DNA from: a virus
Reading direction: 5' to 3' (one strand)
Virus genome (UHGV): UHGV-1430452
DNA: 64,000 nucleotides
Part shown: positions 305-52,600 of the stretch, piece by piece
Numbering within the stretch: position 1 is the first letter of the stretch
Layout of the letters: each line of letters opens with the position of its first letter
Program-made: the position numbers and the translations under genes
The notes under the pieces: generated by a model
Databases searched by the model: none
The model's input: only the letters and a program-made list of their open reading frames with translations
What the model was told of the DNA's origin: nothing

Positions 305-3300
305 TTACTTCACTCCTTTCAAATACTTAGATACTGTCGATGTAGAAACTCCCATCTTCTTAGCAATCTGTTCAAGTGTATAGTTAGATGCAGCCATTGC
401 TTTAGCTCTACTAACTTGTGCACTGCTTAGACTGTTGGTTAGTCTAGGAGTTGCTCGTTCTCTAAGGTTATCGATGTCTGTTGTGTTAAGGATTCTCTTA
501 AGCTGATTCTCACTAACAGCACCAGCTTGTATAGCTTCCCATTCTTTGTCACTGATCTCTATGTTACGATCTCTTCTAGAGATAGAGCCAACCTCTTGTC
601 TATACTTATTCAACGCCTGTTGGCTAAGCTTTCTCAACGGTTCTCCTTTAAGCTCTTCACCATGTTCTTCAAGGTAAGCCTTCTTCTTAGCTGCTATCTC
701 GGAATTAGCTTTTCGTTGAGCAGTTCTTTCTTTAATCTTATTGAGATCTGACTTATCGACTCTCTCCATTAAAGACTTAACCTCATCTCTATACGCAGCC
801 TTAGCACTTGCTGTTGTTTCGATCTTTCCTGTGTTAGCCATAGCTAATCTAGCTTTGTTACCAAGAGCTTTCATCTCATTAGCGTAGTCCGCATAGATAA
901 GTTCCATAGGATGTCTAGCTTTAGATACTAATTTATAAGCATCATCAGTCTCAGCCATCTTAGTACTTTGCTGCATACGGGTTTTAGTACGATATGTAAT
1001 ATCACCAGCGGCATTAGTATAGGTTACTTTCCCAGTGACGGGGTCTTTTTTCTCAATAGGGTTATACCTTTCGTAAGCTGCCTTATCTTTGGGATCATAT
1101 TCAATCTTCTTGCCATCAGCTGTTCGCACGGTAATAAGACCGGTCTTCTTATCTCGTTTTCTATCGACATAATATAGATCGTCGGCCTTCTTCCAAAGCT
1201 TGGCTCCATCTGGTTTGGTGGGGTCATAATCTTTACTACCTGGGATGTTTATTTTATATGAGCCTTGTCTTTTCTCAACTGAATATTGTCCCTTTGATCT
1301 TGATAAAATGGTAGAAGCTCCACCTGATCTTTCATTTCCGTCATCGTCAATACGAACCTGATACTTCTTTTTAAGTGCAGCAATATTGTTATCTATCTCA
1401 CTTTGTTTGTAATCAAGATGATGTTTCTCAGCATCAATAACAACCATGCTATGCTTAACTGCTCTTGCCAATTCTTTTTCATCAGCTCCAGCTAAAGTCA
1501 TATCAGTAATAAGATTGGATACAACACCCATCTGAGTTCCAGTGTTTTTCATGATGGGATATGCTTTTCCATTACGATAATAACGAACATTACCATCTGC
1601 ATCCTTCTTAGCAACACCACCATATTCAACCTTAGGATCAAATCCTTCAAGATCTTCAAGAGGTCGCTTATTAAGAATTTTTACCTTTCCACCTGGATCA
1701 TTGGTAGGAATACACATAACAGTATCGCCATCAAAGTCTGCACCTGAAAGCTGATCAGCAATCTTATGATTAATGCCGACTGCATCGATACTTTGTTTGC
1801 CAATTATTTTATCTCCCAGTGGATTCTTATTGTTAACTGTTAAGATAGGAATTTCAAATCGTCCGCCATGAGGATAACGAATAAGAGCGAGCTTAGTTCC
1901 ACTCTCGTAGTTTGGAGCATATACTTCATTGTCTTTTAAAGAGTTTATTGGAATAATAACGTGGTACTTCTGTCCAGGTAACGCTGCTGCTTTTAAATGT
2001 ACAGCCGCTGCATCGCAGCTATCTGCAAATTTCTCAAGCATATGTTTCTTAATAGTAGGATTAGTAATAGACATATACTCATCAAACTCAGCAAACTTAT
2101 CTTTCTTAGCAAGATCTAACTGTTTCTTAGCTAGAGTCTGTGACTGTTTAGCCAGGAACTGAGATGGTAATGCGTCCTGCCAATCATCCCAATCTCCTTC
2201 ATCGGATCTCTTATTAATGAGACCTAATTTCTTCTTACCGGTCTTAGGATCGTCATACCAATACTGTCCACCCTTGTCAGCATCTTTTATAAGAGAGCCA
2301 AATGGATTGTCTGGATCATCTTTCTTAATATTTTTAAGAACCGTACTTGTTTTATCGCCTAAAGCTGGAGTACCTTTTTTCTTATTCGTATTAAATATGA
2401 CATCTACTCCATCAGGCATGTTGTCAGAATATACTGCCATACCTTTAAGATAATGAGTTCCATCTACAAGAATACGAACCTGTGAATATCGTGAATCACC
2501 GAGATCAAGATCTTTACATCCTCTGCGAAGTTCAATGATACCGTCCTTATCAATACCCTTAAATCCATCAGCACCGACATCGTCTGCATATCGAACCATT
2601 AAACGTTTTGAATCAAGACTTGCAGGATATGTAAACTTCTTCTGGAATGTATCTCCTCCGTCTATTGATTCATAATCGTTAATTGTCTTTACTCTATCGT
2701 AGTCGTAGATTTCTTTATGTGCCGTTCCTGGTTTACAAAGAACTTTCTGGATGGTCTGTTGTCCTTTTGTATTTATCTGAGGAATACCACCAGTATACAC
2801 AGGATAACCTTCTGCTTTCTGTAAGTAATCAAGAGCAGTATTCAATCGTTCTTTGGATATGCCAAGAGATTTTTCAACACCAGCTGTTACATCGATCATA
2901 CCTTTTTGATCAACATGCTCTCGCAGAAAATCTACAGTCTCCATTGCCTGATGCATACGGTCTTCAGACTTAGGATTAAGAAGAGACCTTACTGTGGACT
3001 CTGGAATACCCATTTCTCTACCGATGGCAGTTGCTCCAAGTCCATCTTCTTTTAAAGATTTAGCTCTAGCTACCTGTTGTAATCTTTCTTCATAACCAGC
3101 CCAACTAATCTGCCTTCTATATTCTGTAGTTGTTAAGTCCATGGATTTAGCTATCGCATTATCTCCGGTCCAGGTCTTACCATTATCATCAGTGTAAGTA
3201 AAACCGGCTTTCTTAAGCTCTTTAACTCTTGCGAGGAAATCGGAACCATGTTGGTATCTATCTTTTCCACTTCCATAAGGATACCTACCGCTGCGGCGAG

Positions 3301-3475
3301 GCATACCATAATGCATAAGTTCATCTTCATTCGCGCTGTCTAAGCGATCAGACCAACCAAAATAAGAAAGGATCTCGTCAGCAACGGTGAACTCTTCATC
3401 GCTGTGCTCAAGATCCTCTTCTCCAAATATAGATTCTACAAGTTCGTTCAACGGAGGTTTCTCTAAGAACTCCAT
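305..3475 (-). CDS. large RNA polymerase-like protein (1056 aa): beta-prime-type double-psi beta-barrel motif ADFDGD preceded by IRYPHGGRFEIP; C-terminal HTH
   Basis: ADFDGD hexamer identical to multisubunit RNAP beta-prime NADFDGD; upstream R-x-P-H...F-E-P resembles the beta-prime NRxPTLHR...FEP block; HTH TLEQIAKKMGVSTSTVSKYLKG at C-terminus; start overlaps upstream stop with in-frame GAGGAGG. Confidence 0.85.
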   Translation of the reverse strand: MEFLEKPPLNELVESIFGEEDLEHSDEEFTVADEILSYFGWSDRLDSANEDELMHYGMPRRSGRYPYGSGKDRYQHGSDFLARVKELKKAGFTYTDDNGKTWTGDNAIAKSMDLTTTEYRRQISWAGYEERLQQVARAKSLKEDGLGATAIGREMGIPESTVRSLLNPKSEDRMHQAMETVDFLREHVDQKGMIDVTAGVEKSLGISKERLNTALDYLQKAEGYPVYTGGIPQINTKGQQTIQKVLCKPGTAHKEIYDYDRVKTINDYESIDGGDTFQKKFTYPASLDSKRLMVRYADDVGADGFKGIDKDGIIELRRGCKDLDLGDSRYSQVRILVDGTHYLKGMAVYSDNMPDGVDVIFNTNKKKGTPALGDKTSTVLKNIKKDDPDNPFGSLIKDADKGGQYWYDDPKTGKKKLGLINKRSDEGDWDDWQDALPSQFLAKQSQTLAKKQLDLAKKDKFAEFDEYMSITNPTIKKHMLEKFADSCDAAAVHLKAAALPGQKYHVIIPINSLKDNEVYAPNYESGTKLALIRYPHGGRFEIPILTVNNKNPLGDKIIGKQSIDAVGINHKIADQLSGADFDGDTVMCIPTNDPGGKVKILNKRPLEDLEGFDPKVEYGGVAKKDADGNVRYYRNGKAYPIMKNTGTQMGVVSNLITDMTLAGADEKELARAVKHSMVVIDAEKHHLDYKQSEIDNNIAALKKKYQVRIDDDGNERSGGASTILSRSKGQYSVEKRQGSYKINIPGSKDYDPTKPDGAKLWKKADDLYYVDRKRDKKTGLITVRTADGKKIEYDPKDKAAYERYNPIEKKDPVTGKVTYTNAAGDITYRTKTRMQQSTKMAETDDAYKLVSKARHPMELIYADYANEMKALGNKARLAMANTGKIETTASAKAAYRDEVKSLMERVDKSDLNKIKERTAQRKANSEIAAKKKAYLEEHGEELKGEPLRKLSQQALNKYRQEVGSISRRDRNIEISDKEWEAIQAGAVSENQLKRILNTTDIDNLRERATPRLTNSLSSAQVSRAKAMAASNYTLEQIAKKMGVSTSTVSKYLKGVK

Positions 3476-4437: not shown

Positions 4438-4511
4438 TGGACCCTCTGGGATTCGAACCCAGGACCGTCCGGTTATGAGCCGGATGCTCTAACCAACTGA
4501 ACTAAAGGTCC
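4438..4511 (-). tRNA. tRNA-Met (anticodon CAT), 74 nt, CCA not encoded
   Basis: hand-folded cloverleaf: acceptor GGACCTT/AGGGTCC, D-loop AGTTGGTTA, anticodon stem TCCGG/CCGGA with loop CTCATAA, T-loop TTCGAAT. Confidence 0.85.
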
Positions 4512-5713: not shown

Positions 5714-5920
5714 ATAGCCGTTCTCTTCTAACCATTGACAATAATCATAAAATCATCCTTCTTTCTTATACTCTTTCCATTGCTCCAATGGACTCTTTTC
5801 TTCGAAATCATCAAACTCGTCGTACTCGTCATACATAAACGCATTCTCCTTTCTAAATTTGTTTTAATATAAGTTCGAAAACAAAAGAAGAGGTTGAAAA
5901 TATCAATCTCATCTTTCTTT

Positions 5921-5948
5921 CTATAATAGGGCGTGTAATTTTCGCGAG
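5921..5948 (-). promoter_or_regulatory. conserved promoter-like motif copy
   Basis: plus-strand ctataatagggcgtgtaattttcgcga; family consensus. Confidence 0.55.
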
Positions 5949-10072: not shown

Positions 10073-10100
10073 CATAATATAAAATGTATTTTTCGCGAAT
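10073..10100 (-). promoter_or_regulatory. conserved promoter-like motif copy, directly after a terminator-like hairpin
   Basis: cataatataaaatgtatttttcgcgaa. Confidence 0.5.
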
Positions 10101-20594: not shown

Positions 20595-20762
20595 CTACCT
20601 CCTATTTTTCATCATCCGTTCGAAGTCGTTAATAACTTCTTGCTGATGATTGATGATTCCGATCAACTCATTTACTTTTTGAACCAGAATCTTATCGGTA
20701 TGTCCGTATTCGTCTGATACATACCAAGGTTTATTAAGTCTGTTGATTTTCTTTTTAGGCAT
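20595..20762 (-). CDS. small hypothetical protein (55 aa)
   Basis: missed by track; SD AAAAGGAGGG; stop within the next gene's SD. Confidence 0.5.
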   Translation of the reverse strand: MPKKKINRLNKPWYVSDEYGHTDKILVQKVNELIGIINHQQEVINDFERMMKNRR

Positions 20763-20802
20763 AATATCAACCCTCCTTTTTAAATCAGTCTCAGTTCCTT
20801 CA

Positions 20803-20845
20803 AACAGAAAACAAAAAGAGTCCTAATCATTTCTGATTAAGACCC
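20803..20845 (-). terminator. strong rho-independent terminator
   Basis: 12-bp stem GGGUCUUAAUCA/UGAUUAGGACUC (with G-U pairs), loop GAAA, then U-rich tract. Confidence 0.7.
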
Positions 20846-20982
20846 TTTCCAAGAATAAGAATAGAGTTGCGCAAATCTAATGCCTTCGCGAGGGGGCGGC
20901 TTTTACACCGAGGACAGTCGCAACATTAGATATCTCTATCCTAAGCATAACTAATCCCTATCCATTTAATTATGCAGTTTCT
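20846..20982 (-). ncRNA. candidate small non-coding RNA: promoter-like motif, ~135-nt GC-rich structured segment, then terminator
   Basis: only micro-ORFs; 8-bp inverted repeat ATCTAATG/CATTAGAT encloses a GC-rich core; bounded by motif 20983..21009 and terminator 20803..20845. Confidence 0.4.
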
Positions 20983-21009
20983 CATAATAGGAATTGTATT
21001 TATCGCGAA
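20983..21009 (-). promoter_or_regulatory. conserved promoter-like motif copy
   Basis: cataataggaattgtatttatcgcgaa. Confidence 0.55.
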
Positions 21010-21010
21010 T

Positions 21011-21036
21011 AAAGAAAAGCCCCGGATAGAGGGCTT
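21011..21036 (-). terminator. terminator hairpin immediately upstream of promoter motif
   Basis: stem AAGCCC/GGGCUU then UUCUUU. Confidence 0.5.
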
Positions 21037-21041
21037 ATCTA

Positions 21042-21398
21042 TTAAATCTTGTTTTTCTCTAAATAGAGTTCTTCAAGTTGTATAGTTAGTTCTTCTATCC
21101 GTGCTTGCCTTTCTGGAATTCTACTAAATTTATTAATGTTTATAGTATCATCCAATCTGCTTATAGATTCCTTTAACTCGTCAATTTCAAATATCACGCG
21201 CTTTATCTCTCTGTCGATACTTCTTTTTGCTACCGATGTAACCTTTCCTAGTCTAATGTCGATACTGTTCAGAATCTTAGTCTTATGATTCAACTTGCAT
21301 CCCATTATAACTAATCCAGTTCCGGCGACAGCTAATGATATCTCGATTTTATGCTCCTTGATATAGTCTTTAGCTTTGTTAAATTTTTCTTTCAGCAT
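21042..21398 (-). CDS. membrane-anchored coiled-coil protein (118 aa)
   Basis: TM LAVAGTGLVIMGC then coiled coil. Confidence 0.65.
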   Translation of the reverse strand: MLKEKFNKAKDYIKEHKIEISLAVAGTGLVIMGCKLNHKTKILNSIDIRLGKVTSVAKRSIDREIKRVIFEIDELKESISRLDDTININKFSRIPERQARIEELTIQLEELYLEKNKI

Positions 21399-25966: not shown

Positions 25967-27535
25967 CTATTTAGCCAAGCCCCTTTCGTTTAGTGCATCC
26001 TCAACTGCGGAATATCGATCTGAGTTAAGTTGCTCTAATAAGCACTCTAGCGGATCGGTGTTATTACTAAGCACCATATTGGTAATAATCGGACTAAATC
26101 CACTTACTAAAGCAACTCCTAGATCGTTCTCTTTTACTGGGATGGTTCCTGTTCTGCTACAAATGTTCCAGAATATCAATCTAGGAAGTTTATAGCCGTA
26201 CTGAGAGTAACGATCTGATATCGTATTAAACAGTGTTTTACTCGGTCTGATATTGCTCCATCTTGAACCTCCTTCGCAACTAGCACAGCTATCAAATTCC
26301 ATATCTGATAAGATAAGTATGTTTTTAGGAATGTCGTTCTGTGACATGTTATTGTTGATTGCTGTTTTGAGAATAAGTTCAAATACAGCTTCGATGTTTG
26401 TGTTAGCCACCTCGTTGTATCTCCTGGCAATTTCGATCTTTTCTCTCAAAGATTCTCCGTTACTAAGATCTACTAAACGAGGATTCATGCTGAATGTAAT
26501 ATATTTGTCTCTGAATTCACCAGAACTTCTTTCAGAAAAATATATTGCAAGAGCATTGGCTACCTCTAAAGCTGTTACACTTGTTCCGCCGACAGGACAG
26601 TCCATACTACCCGATCCGTCCGCAACGCAAATTGTGTTACCGTCTCCGTTTACATAATCGGGAAGTGCTTTCCACAATTCTTCAAGTGTAATGTCATCTT
26701 TACCTTTGAGTTTATTCCCGTACCAAAATTCACCCCGATCAAAGTATTTATGTACAATATCATGCGGGAATAGTACACCAGCATTGATTTTCGTCTCGCC
26801 TTTCTGCAAACTCGCTAAGTAACTACTTCTCCTTTCCTCATCGTTCTTCATAAACGCATTACCATATATAATATTGGCTCTTGATGGAACCGCAGAATAA
26901 TCAATCTTTGACCATTCTTTCTTACACATACTAACTTCCACAACTTTTAAATATGCACGAAGATCCGAAAGCATTTTACGATAGGATTTCTCGTTAATAA
27001 ATAACTTCTGAATCATAAGACGTGCTAGTCGTTTTGTCTCTTTAGACGAAGTGTTTGCAGACGGCATCCATTTAGCTAATAAAGAAATAGGCTCTCCTAG
27101 AGATCTCTTCCTTATATCACTTGTCAACTGTGTAGATACAATTGATACAACGTAGTCTGAAACGTCAGTGTCTAATAAACACCATAAATCATCCCATCTA
27201 CCGTATTCCGGAACCAACGGAATGATTGCCTTTGATATATCGGCATGTTTTTCGGATAGATACTTAAGACAATATCTGAATAATCTTCTTTCTCCGAGAC
27301 CTTCTCGTACATCTCTGGCATAGAACAACCACTTGATAGCAAGCTGTTTGTTTTCGTAGAATGTCTTTACAAACTTGTCTACGATTTCTCCCTCGTCCAT
27401 ATTTCGCATGGATGTTACTGAAAAGTTGATGTCAAGAAGTTCTTTACCAGTAGTACGGTAACCAACTGCTCCATTTTCAGTAAGGCTTGTGTTGAATTCA
27501 TCATTGATTGTTTCTTTCAGATTGTTCATAAACAT
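25967..27535 (-). CDS. vWA-domain protein with MIDAS motif (522 aa); possibly TROVE/Ro60-like or DUF2828-type
   Basis: ICVADGSGSM is a DxSxS MIDAS motif; helical N-terminal region; family assignment tentative. Confidence 0.7.
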   Translation of the reverse strand: MFMNNLKETINDEFNTSLTENGAVGYRTTGKELLDINFSVTSMRNMDEGEIVDKFVKTFYENKQLAIKWLFYARDVREGLGERRLFRYCLKYLSEKHADISKAIIPLVPEYGRWDDLWCLLDTDVSDYVVSIVSTQLTSDIRKRSLGEPISLLAKWMPSANTSSKETKRLARLMIQKLFINEKSYRKMLSDLRAYLKVVEVSMCKKEWSKIDYSAVPSRANIIYGNAFMKNDEERRSSYLASLQKGETKINAGVLFPHDIVHKYFDRGEFWYGNKLKGKDDITLEELWKALPDYVNGDGNTICVADGSGSMDCPVGGTSVTALEVANALAIYFSERSSGEFRDKYITFSMNPRLVDLSNGESLREKIEIARRYNEVANTNIEAVFELILKTAINNNMSQNDIPKNILILSDMEFDSCASCEGGSRWSNIRPSKTLFNTISDRYSQYGYKLPRLIFWNICSRTGTIPVKENDLGVALVSGFSPIITNMVLSNNTDPLECLLEQLNSDRYSAVEDALNERGLAK

Positions 27536-27585
27536 AGTTTTTCTCCTTTCTTACAAGACGGTTTTTAATCCCTTTGTTTTAAATT

Positions 27586-27740
27586 TGCTGTTACCGCCTT
27601 AGGTCAAGATGCTTCATTCTTCTTAATTGCCAACATTAAAAATTGCTGTTAGCATCTTAAAAAAGAAAAGAGAGTAGCTGTTACAAGATACTATAATTCG
27701 CTCATCCAATTGTTTTAATTAGTTGCTGTTAGTATCTTTA
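27586..27740. repeat. four copies of TTGCTGTTA(C/G)NATCTT-like repeat in the 5' leader of the vWA gene
   Basis: copies near 27586, 27641, 27673, 27721. Confidence 0.6.
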
Positions 27741-27759
27741 TTTAACTACTACTCTCTCT

Positions 27760-27784
27760 CATAATAGGTGTTGTAAATTTCGCG
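27760..27784 (-). promoter_or_regulatory. conserved promoter-like motif copy, ~225 nt upstream of vWA gene start
   Basis: cataataggtgttgtaaatttcgcg. Confidence 0.55.
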
Positions 27785-47957: not shown

Positions 47958-48029
47958 AGAAACAGTGTAGGACTCGAACCCACAACCTACAGATATAAGT
48001 CTGTTGCTCTACCAATTGAGCTAACTGTT
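47958..48029 (-). tRNA. tRNA with atypical anticodon loop, probable anticodon TAT (Ile)
   Basis: acceptor AAACAGT/ACTGTTT, D-arm GCTC-AATTGGTA-GAGC, T-loop TTCGAGT; anticodon stem ACAG/CTGT with loop containing CTTATAT (6 or 8 nt by hand). Confidence 0.6.
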
Positions 48030-48034
48030 TCTTC

Positions 48035-50479: not shown

Positions 50480-50648
50480 TCCTTTAATTGGTTTTTGATA
50501 AAAATAAAAAGAGAATACAATGACTTCAGGGTCGGCCCAACGAAAACCGTTGCCCGGTGGGTAGCATGTTTTATTACGTTATTACGTGCCGCTACGCCTT
50601 CGTGTCTCACCACTGGATTTCCACCAGTATCTATCCATTGCTTTCTCT
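50480..50648 (-). ncRNA. candidate structured 5' leader / cis-regulatory RNA (~165 nt, GC-rich) between promoter motif and start of 50249..50479
   Basis: hairpins ACTGG-N7-CCAGT and CAACG-N5-CGTTG, followed by U-rich tract just upstream of the SD. Confidence 0.35.
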
Positions 50649-50675
50649 CATAATAGGTGATGTAATTTTCGCGAA
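50649..50675 (-). promoter_or_regulatory. conserved promoter-like motif copy (consensus match)
   Basis: cataataggtgatgtaattttcgcgaa. Confidence 0.55.
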
Positions 50676-52350: not shown

Positions 52351-52445
52351 ATTACTATTATCCTTTCTTTAACTTTAGTTATATAACTTTTGTTTAAACT
52401 CTCGCGTTAGGAAATATAAAAGAAGAAAAAAAAAGAAAAGACTAT

Positions 52446-52525
52446 GGGAATAGCGCGGGATTCGAACCCACGACGTTGAGTTTCCTCTTATTCTTCCATT
52501 AGAACTAACCGTCTTAACTATTCCA
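52446..52525 (-). other. tRNA-like element: canonical acceptor stem and T-arm (GGGTTCGAATCCC) but no resolvable anticodon arm; pseudo-tRNA or tRNA-derived structured RNA
   Basis: acceptor GGAATAG/CTATTCC and T-loop TTCGAAT found; every 5-bp/7-nt anticodon-arm register checked by hand fails; promoter motif directly upstream. Confidence 0.4.
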
Positions 52526-52572
52526 GAGACTTCTTCCGATATATTGCTATACGGGAATTGTTCTCTTCTTTT

Positions 52573-52600
52573 CTATAATAGGAAATGTTTATTTAGCGAA
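52573..52600 (-). promoter_or_regulatory. conserved promoter-like motif copy upstream of the tRNA-like element
   Basis: ctataataggaaatgtttatttagcgaa. Confidence 0.55.

Follow-up and report, generated by a model that had tools for sequence, protein, structure and literature searches.

A putative promoter-to-terminator RNA unit with a GC-rich, structured core ahead of a small-gene operon of an uncultured human-gut phage

Does the intergenic stretch between two small genes of an uncultured human-gut phage specify an RNA of its own, or does it only precede the operon that follows? The locus lies in a 64,000-nt stretch of the phage genome, here called the window, in which nearly all genes are on the minus strand. 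It occupies the 279-nt gap between a 118-aa ORF (21398..21042) and a 55-aa ORF, both on that strand. A sequence-only reading of this DNA had proposed a stand-alone small RNA gene at this place, in which a promoter-like motif is followed by GC-rich sequence with an inverted repeat and then by a strong terminator. The DNA polymerase/primase of the phage is nearest to those in unannotated human faecal phage records (about 64% amino acid identity), and that of Faecalibacterium phage FP_oengus is 53% identical. The features of the unit are collected in Table 1.

Table 1 Features of the unit, its neighbours and the promoter family in the window.
Feature	Position	Strand	Basis
Intrinsic terminator of the upstream 118-aa gene	21017..21036	-	terminator scan: 7 pairs, 4 GC, T-run
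Phage-specific promoter-like motif TTCGCGATAAATACAATTCCTATTAT: CGCGA element, 12 nt, CTATTAT	20984..21009	-	repeated-motif match
GAGAAA, purine-rich initial transcribed sequence common to many promoter copies	20978..20983	-	presumed start
P1, 10-bp hairpin GCAUAAUUAA / UUAGUUAUGC with 11-nt loop AUGGAUAGGGA	20945..20975	-	predicted fold, z = -2.5
23-aa ORF MLRIEISNVATVLGVKAAPSRRH, the only sense ORF in the core	20877..20948	-	ORF list; judged not credible
Irregular rod of 85 nt with four helices, P2 to P5	20858..20942	-	predicted fold, -26.3 kcal/mol, z = -2.7
Rod helices P2 (AGGAUAGAG/CUCUAUUCU) and P3 (AUCUAAUGU/GCAUUAGAU)	within 20858..20942	-	predicted fold
Rod helices P4 (UGCGA/UCGCG) and P5 (CGGU/GCCG)	within 20858..20942	-	predicted fold
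Sole core difference between window (A) and L001 (G)	20867	-	alignment; predicted internal loop
Intrinsic terminator: 12-bp core stem, GAAA loop, A-tract/U-tract pairs, then UUUUUGUUUU	20808..20850	-	scan and fold
RBS AAAAGGAGGG (20780..20771) and 55-aa ORF (20762..20595), first gene of the operon	20595..20780	-	strong RBS
Promoter family, -10 ends	5923, 6449, 9876, 10074, 20984, 24149, 27761, 48037, 50220, 50650	-	motif scan
Promoter family, -10 ends (rest)	51003, 51229, 51542, 51735, 51977, 52575, 53041, 53525, 54454	-	motif scan

The promoter-like motif reported at 20983..21009 was found again (21009..20984) and belongs to a repeated family. The family pattern, CGCKA-N12-CTATTRT, is matched exactly at 21007..20984, in intergenic sequence and on the coding strand. 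When up to one mismatch was allowed, the window held 19 sites, every one of them on the minus strand, against an expectation of 0.87 +/- 0.86; 11 of the 19 fall within 50.2-54.5 kb. A strong GGAGG-type RBS usually lies 20-30 nt 3' of these sites, and a terminator U-tract typically lies 5' of them; at the present locus, the terminator of the 118-aa gene closes the preceding transcription unit just ahead of the motif. A sigma-70 consensus scan did not call the motif, and no sigma-70 -35 element was found at 16-18 nt spacing. The sequences downstream of the promoter copies open with GAGA, GAAA, or AGAA, with the motif often continuing into GAGA, and from this pattern the transcription start is presumed to lie in the GAGAAA given in Table 1. 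One copy of the family stands 6 nt before the start of a tRNA gene (48031..47958, minus strand) and another precedes a 135-nt tRNA-like unit (52574..52440, minus strand), so the family also serves small RNA genes. A second promoter within the core (TCGCGAA ... CTCTATTCT) was considered and rejected, its spacing being 9 nt too long by comparison with all 19 promoters.

Several further observations were made on the promoter family and the RNA genes that it precedes. Often, the upstream element and the terminator U-tract ahead of it combine into the palindrome TTTTCGCGAAAA, which resembles a dimer-binding site. A 1056-aa protein encoded at 305..3475 (minus strand) matches PHROG 4291 (labelled RNA-dependent RNA polymerase), which we take to be of the YonO-like single-chain RNAP type, and has a C-terminal HTH/sigma-70 region 4-like domain; judged by these matches, it is a candidate reader of the family. 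The promoter-driven 135-nt unit has a 5' hairpin, then a tRNA-like domain and a U-run (z = -3.6). Its tRNA-like domain consists of an acceptor-like stem (GGAAUAG/CUAUUCC), a T-arm (GUGGGUUCGAAUCCCGC), and a 3' CA; ARAGORN did not call the unit, and no Rfam match was obtained at E<=1. The tRNA at 47958..48031 has an apparent 6-nt anticodon loop (ACAGA-CUUAUA-UCUGU) and is given no definite anticodon by ARAGORN, and a similarly odd tRNA occurs in L068 (3673..3744).

At the other end of the unit, the predicted 12-bp-stem terminator with its U-tract was confirmed. The core stem pairs 20845..20834 with 20829..20818 and runs into the U-tract at 20817..20808; the hairpin has a folding energy of -20.3 kcal/mol (z = -4.5). 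When the six homologous hairpins (window, L001, L003, L112, L113, and L118) were compared, compensatory double changes were present in 7 of the 15 pairs. A transcript ending at UUUUUGUUUU is predicted to be about 170 nt long.

Between promoter motif and terminator lies a core of about 126 nt, and here too the GC-rich stretch and the inverted repeat of the sequence-only reading were recovered. The best 60-nt stretch of the core reaches 56.7% GC, compared to a window mean of 36.6%; this peak is at the 99.8th percentile of the window and is reached by only 8 regions, the tRNA-Met gene included. The repeat arms ATCTAATG (20931..20924) and CATTAGAT (20882..20875) are paired with each other in the minimum-free-energy fold, where they form part of the rod helices. 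The predicted sense RNA consists of three parts, namely the P1 hairpin, the 85-nt rod, and the terminator hairpin. A single architecture dominates the suboptimal ensemble within 4 kcal/mol of the optimum, and P1 is present in nearly all of these structures; 1 of 200 shuffles folds as well as the rod. The sense strand folds at -34.2 kcal/mol and the antisense strand at -25.6 kcal/mol, a difference of 8.6 kcal/mol in favor of the sense strand. The whole core with its unpaired 5' tail gave only z = -1.7, with 14 of 200 shuffles folding as well, and core and terminator folded together gave z = -3.0. According to the unpaired probabilities, CUGUCCU, GUAAAA, CCCCC (20896..20892), and the palindrome UUGCGCAA (20874..20867) are exposed in the rod, as is the P1 loop.

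The earlier claim that this sequence has no credible ORF also held. The single sense ORF encodes 23 residues, has no Pfam match, and is preceded by a weak Shine-Dalgarno sequence (AGGGA, 6 nt 5' of the ATG), and in the predicted fold its ATG is buried in the P1 stem. The ORF is identical in L001, leaving no synonymous change to compare. We consider it highly improbable that the unit serves to encode this micro-protein or leader peptide: its presence in identical form in both lineages that carry the core and the position of AGGGA would suit such a role, but the Shine-Dalgarno sequence is weak compared to the GGAGG sites of the phage's genes, the start codon is paired, and no family match exists. 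The 23-aa ORF shares its reading frame with the 55-aa gene (20948..20595, minus strand), the 62 codons between them holding two TAG and no TAA or TGA. A TAG-recoded fusion of the two was rejected, as the frame runs into TAA TGA in L001 and is not conserved, which also speaks against the micro-protein; because it is absent from L001, the in-frame link is probably a coincidence and not recoding.

Comparison with known RNA classes gave no assignment. A search of the whole window with Rfam 15 returned nothing at the unit at the gathering threshold, and searches with 601 nt and 191 nt at E<=10 hit nothing except, by chance, the terminator hairpin. By ARAGORN and the Rfam tRNA model, the tRNAs of the window lie at 4438..4511 and 47958..48031 only, with none at the unit, and a tRNA or tRNA-like RNA was rejected on the predicted fold, which is a rod with no cloverleaf match. 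An HDV-like ribozyme was considered from the order of P1 and P2 strands in AUCUAAUG-UUGCG ... CAUUAGAU-UUG-CGCAA. The conformer with UUGCG:CGCAA forced was 5.5 kcal/mol worse, the 3-nt linker between the 3' strands of P1 and P2 would be too short for an 8-bp helix, making the pseudoknot sterically implausible, and HDV-type Rfam models gave no match at E<=10 on the same 601 nt and 191 nt. The same energy difference led us to reject a bistable switch in the core. As for antisense targets within the 64-kb window, the best duplex was equalled by 25% of shuffles, and two complementary 10-mers to the core were found, compared to about 8 for shuffles.

A gene with DUF2828/DUF7788 (25967..27535), whose PHROG label is 'RNA-binding protein', lies about 5 kb from the unit. 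A Y RNA partner of a Ro60/TROVE-like protein was rejected for the core, whose ends are unpaired (a 5' hairpin, then the rod) and which has no Rfam Y RNA match. The DUF2828/DUF7788 gene itself has a 225-nt leader (27536..27760, minus strand) with three similar hairpins that carry UAACAGCAA in or near each loop; this arrangement may point to a site of autoregulation or one for an RNA partner. About 150 nt of GC-rich sequence (~50490..50649, minus strand) form another long leader behind a promoter copy (GAGAGAAAGCAAUGGAUAG ... CCGGGCAACGGUUUUCGUUGGGCCGACCC); Rfam gave nothing for it at E<=1, it does not significantly resemble the core, and paralogy between the core and the other long leaders of the window was not significant.

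In the searches made here, the core turned up in two phage lineages only. One is that of the window, with 100% identical copies in human-gut assemblies (L106 and L123-L127); an exact-protein look-up likewise returned only 100% identical copies of the window phage. The other is L001, an 89.5-kb contig represented also by L093 and L108. Between the two, 1 of 126 nt of the core differs, so that the core offers no covariation. Similarity is far lower in the flanks: there are several differences in the promoter and compensatory changes in the terminator, and the genes upstream are unrelated, being the 118-aa ORF in the window and a GIY-YIG/NUMOD3 homing endonuclease in L001. L001 also carries an extra 122-aa gene downstream of the unit. 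On one side, the boundary of the shared block coincides exactly with the presumed transcription start, and on the other with the terminator foot. L003, the closest relative by helicase (93% at the amino acid level), has a homologous promoter followed directly by a homologous hairpin and a 127-aa gene, and the core is precisely absent, so that the element is polymorphic for presence and absence. Since L003 lacks the core and distant relatives have the hairpin without a promoter, the comparison suggests that the terminator hairpin is probably older than both promoter and core.

Wider searches added no third lineage. The core was absent from 80 helicase-relative loci; homologues of the 55-aa ORF occur on 15 IMG/VR contigs, and among these 15 loci only the L001 contig has the core. 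Near and distant searches of INPHARED returned no homologue, IMG/VR scans with 16-, 17-, and 19-mers of the core returned only L001, one 19-mer in the JGI metagenomes returned the same two lineages and 22 chance matches in GC-rich DNA, and one 17-mer in the GTDB genomes returned chance matches only. An RNA anti-CRISPR, a solitary unit identical in sequence to the CRISPR repeat of the host, was among the classes considered, and for it the 17-mer scan yielded just these chance matches. The covariance search that had been suggested as a check was likewise empty, with no Rfam family and nothing at E<=10 in 0.5 Mb of relatives. Separately, the 16-mer CTCGGTGTAAAAGCCG was seen to recur in a conserved block (ggtccCTCGGTGTAAAAGCCGaggcaaaactggcggg...) of very small viral contigs of 1-4 kb in IMG/VR (L150-L152, L161, L162, L166-L168, L170, L173, L176, L183, and L191). 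It also forms terminator hairpins in two other unrelated phage groups; none of these occurrences has a relation to the core.

The near-identity of the core is not proof of selection, because the genomes of the window phage and L001 are mosaics in which further 147-nt segments differ by just 0-4 mismatches, and because a homing endonuclease adjoins the unit in L001. Recent exchange alone could explain the identity. The endonuclease gene of L001 is free-standing (1415..2062) and lies directly upstream of the promoter-core unit, and co-conversion from it could have spread the unit. These circumstances would suit a functionless transcribed passenger, that is, a leftover foreign or decayed fragment trapped between promoter and terminator in a hypervariable region and carried between the two lineages by cassette-mediated recombination or by homing-endonuclease co-conversion; so would the confinement of the core to two lineages, its dispensability in L003, and the modest z-score of its fold. 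We regard such a passenger as unlikely, considering that the GC content is far above the phage background, that one strand-specific fold dominates, that the core has been kept intact in two gene contexts with block ends placed exactly at the transcription start and terminator foot, and that, with all frames closed, it does not obviously look like a piece of a gene. A function of the core is favored by its GC content, which resembles that of a tRNA, by its single strand-specific fold, and by its retention in two gene contexts.

How far the unit stands alone depends on its terminator. In L112-L115 and L118 there is no promoter, and only 8 nt separate the homologous hairpin from the RBS of the 55-aa gene downstream. 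A scan of the window for CGCKA-N12-CTATTRT found no copy between the terminator hairpin and the 55-aa ORF, and the nearest family promoter downstream is at 10074, about 10.7 kb away. Since the hairpins of the relatives precede the same downstream genes without a promoter and the next promoter is so distant, the terminator must be read through. At window 5880..5923 (minus strand) and in L003 (7470..7545), a hairpin and U-tract come straight after a promoter copy and ahead of the gene, an order that recalls the PeSL cassettes of T4-type phages and implies leaky or regulated termination in this phage, as far as sequence can tell. Promoter 20984 very probably also feeds the 55-aa operon, and the unit is therefore not strictly stand-alone. 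The proposal of a stand-alone small RNA gene is accordingly upheld for the layout of promoter, structured non-coding RNA, and terminator, which appears to be a real promoter-to-terminator RNA unit, but independence from the operon is not established, as read-through is required. With the terminator read through and the operon fed from the same promoter, both a terminated RNA of about 170 nt and a read-through mRNA are to be expected, and the core probably represents either a small RNA or an early-operon leader.

It is possible, though doubtful, that the core acts only in cis, as a 5' leader or attenuator. The promoter would then be there for the 55-aa operon, the hairpin would be leaky or regulated, and the core would tune termination, translation, or the stability of the mRNA, for instance by responding to a ligand or protein or by acting as a put/EAR-like antitermination RNA, with a short terminated product that has no function of its own. 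The required read-through, the remoteness of the next promoter, the direct promoter-hairpin-gene order in L003 and at window 5923, and the presence of the core at the head of the same operon in both lineages, with the 122-aa gene as an indel, are all in keeping with a leader. Other results speak against it: the terminator is fully formed in the ensemble with no alternative pairing to the core, and its arms vary between the window and L001 while the core stays constant. These two findings led us to reject a riboswitch or attenuator of the terminator/antiterminator type; the complementarity that core and terminator do share is a 5-6 nt GUCCU(C) match, which on sequence inspection is at chance level. 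A riboswitch sensor domain conserved across many genomes was rejected because the core occurs in only two near-identical lineages. In addition, other promoter-terminator units of the phage (e.g., 24149 to 23929) are without a similar element, and no Rfam riboswitch or antitermination family matched.

The reading that we favor, with somewhat less than even confidence, is that termination near 20810 with partial read-through yields a discrete non-coding RNA with a host component as its target in trans. Transcription would start near 20980 from a copy (21009..20984) of the phage's own early-type promoter, and the first ~170 nt of the transcript would fold into three stem-loop domains: the P1 hairpin, the GC-rich rod of 85 nt, and the terminator. 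At the U-tract (~20810), many transcripts would probably stop, freeing a discrete RNA of about 170 nt, and the remainder would read through as mRNA of an early operon encoding proteins of 55, 70, and 134 aa. The 126-nt core would have arrived as cargo, by insertion or by recombinational exchange, between a promoter and a hairpin that were already there. Most likely, the freed RNA would use its exposed loops (CCCCC, UUGCGCAA, and the P1 loop) to reach its host target in trans, either by base pairing or by serving as a decoy for a protein. A bolder version, which we consider quite improbable, would assign the core to a novel class of phage non-coding RNA, carried from phage to phage as cargo in promoter/terminator cassettes and directed at the host early in infection, for instance as a decoy or guide mimic against a defence system or as a translation regulator working through its C-rich and palindromic loops.

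To our knowledge, very little work has been done on non-coding RNAs in uncultured gut phages. Phage small RNAs, regulatory or of unknown function, with their own promoter and intrinsic terminator include the stable RNAs C and D of T4, from its tRNA region, and lambda OOP, and the C4 RNA of P1/P7 is processed from an operon leader. Like these, the present unit is predicted to give a short structured transcript from a phage promoter that ends before the first gene of an operon, and it shares its genome with tRNA and tRNA-like genes; it differs in resembling no described family by sequence or covariance model and in having no antisense partner in the 64-kb window. If the favored reading is true, the unit is a compact candidate of about 170 nt for a host-directed phage RNA. 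The 19-copy promoter family, with its use at tRNA and tRNA-like genes, helps the annotation of this phage group. In SPbeta, an unannotated non-coding RNA is located at the start of a late operon transcribed by YonO (PMC5467207).

The order of promoter, ~130 nt of structured RNA, intrinsic terminator, RBS, and gene is also that of the terminator-based 5' leaders of Firmicutes (riboswitches, attenuators, put, and EAR), from which the unit differs in having no competing antiterminator, no conservation across taxa, no Rfam match, and no repetition at the other terminators of the phage. T4-type phages have PeSL cassettes, in which an early promoter and a stem-loop form a composite motif that mediates the shuffling of modules (PMC2839356, PMC4122927). 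The window phage resembles them in its repeated module of promoter and terminator hairpin between small early genes, and the boundaries of indels and replacements among the window, L001, L003, and L112 fall exactly at such modules. The phage group, the host, and the motif sequence are all different, and the swapped cargo is here a non-coding structured segment and not an ORF. By analogy, not homology, the promoter/hairpin modules would serve as PeSL-like recombination joints, and, if the unit is expressed and functional, hypervariable early regions would exchange not only small ORFs but also RNA genes by way of promoter/terminator cassettes.
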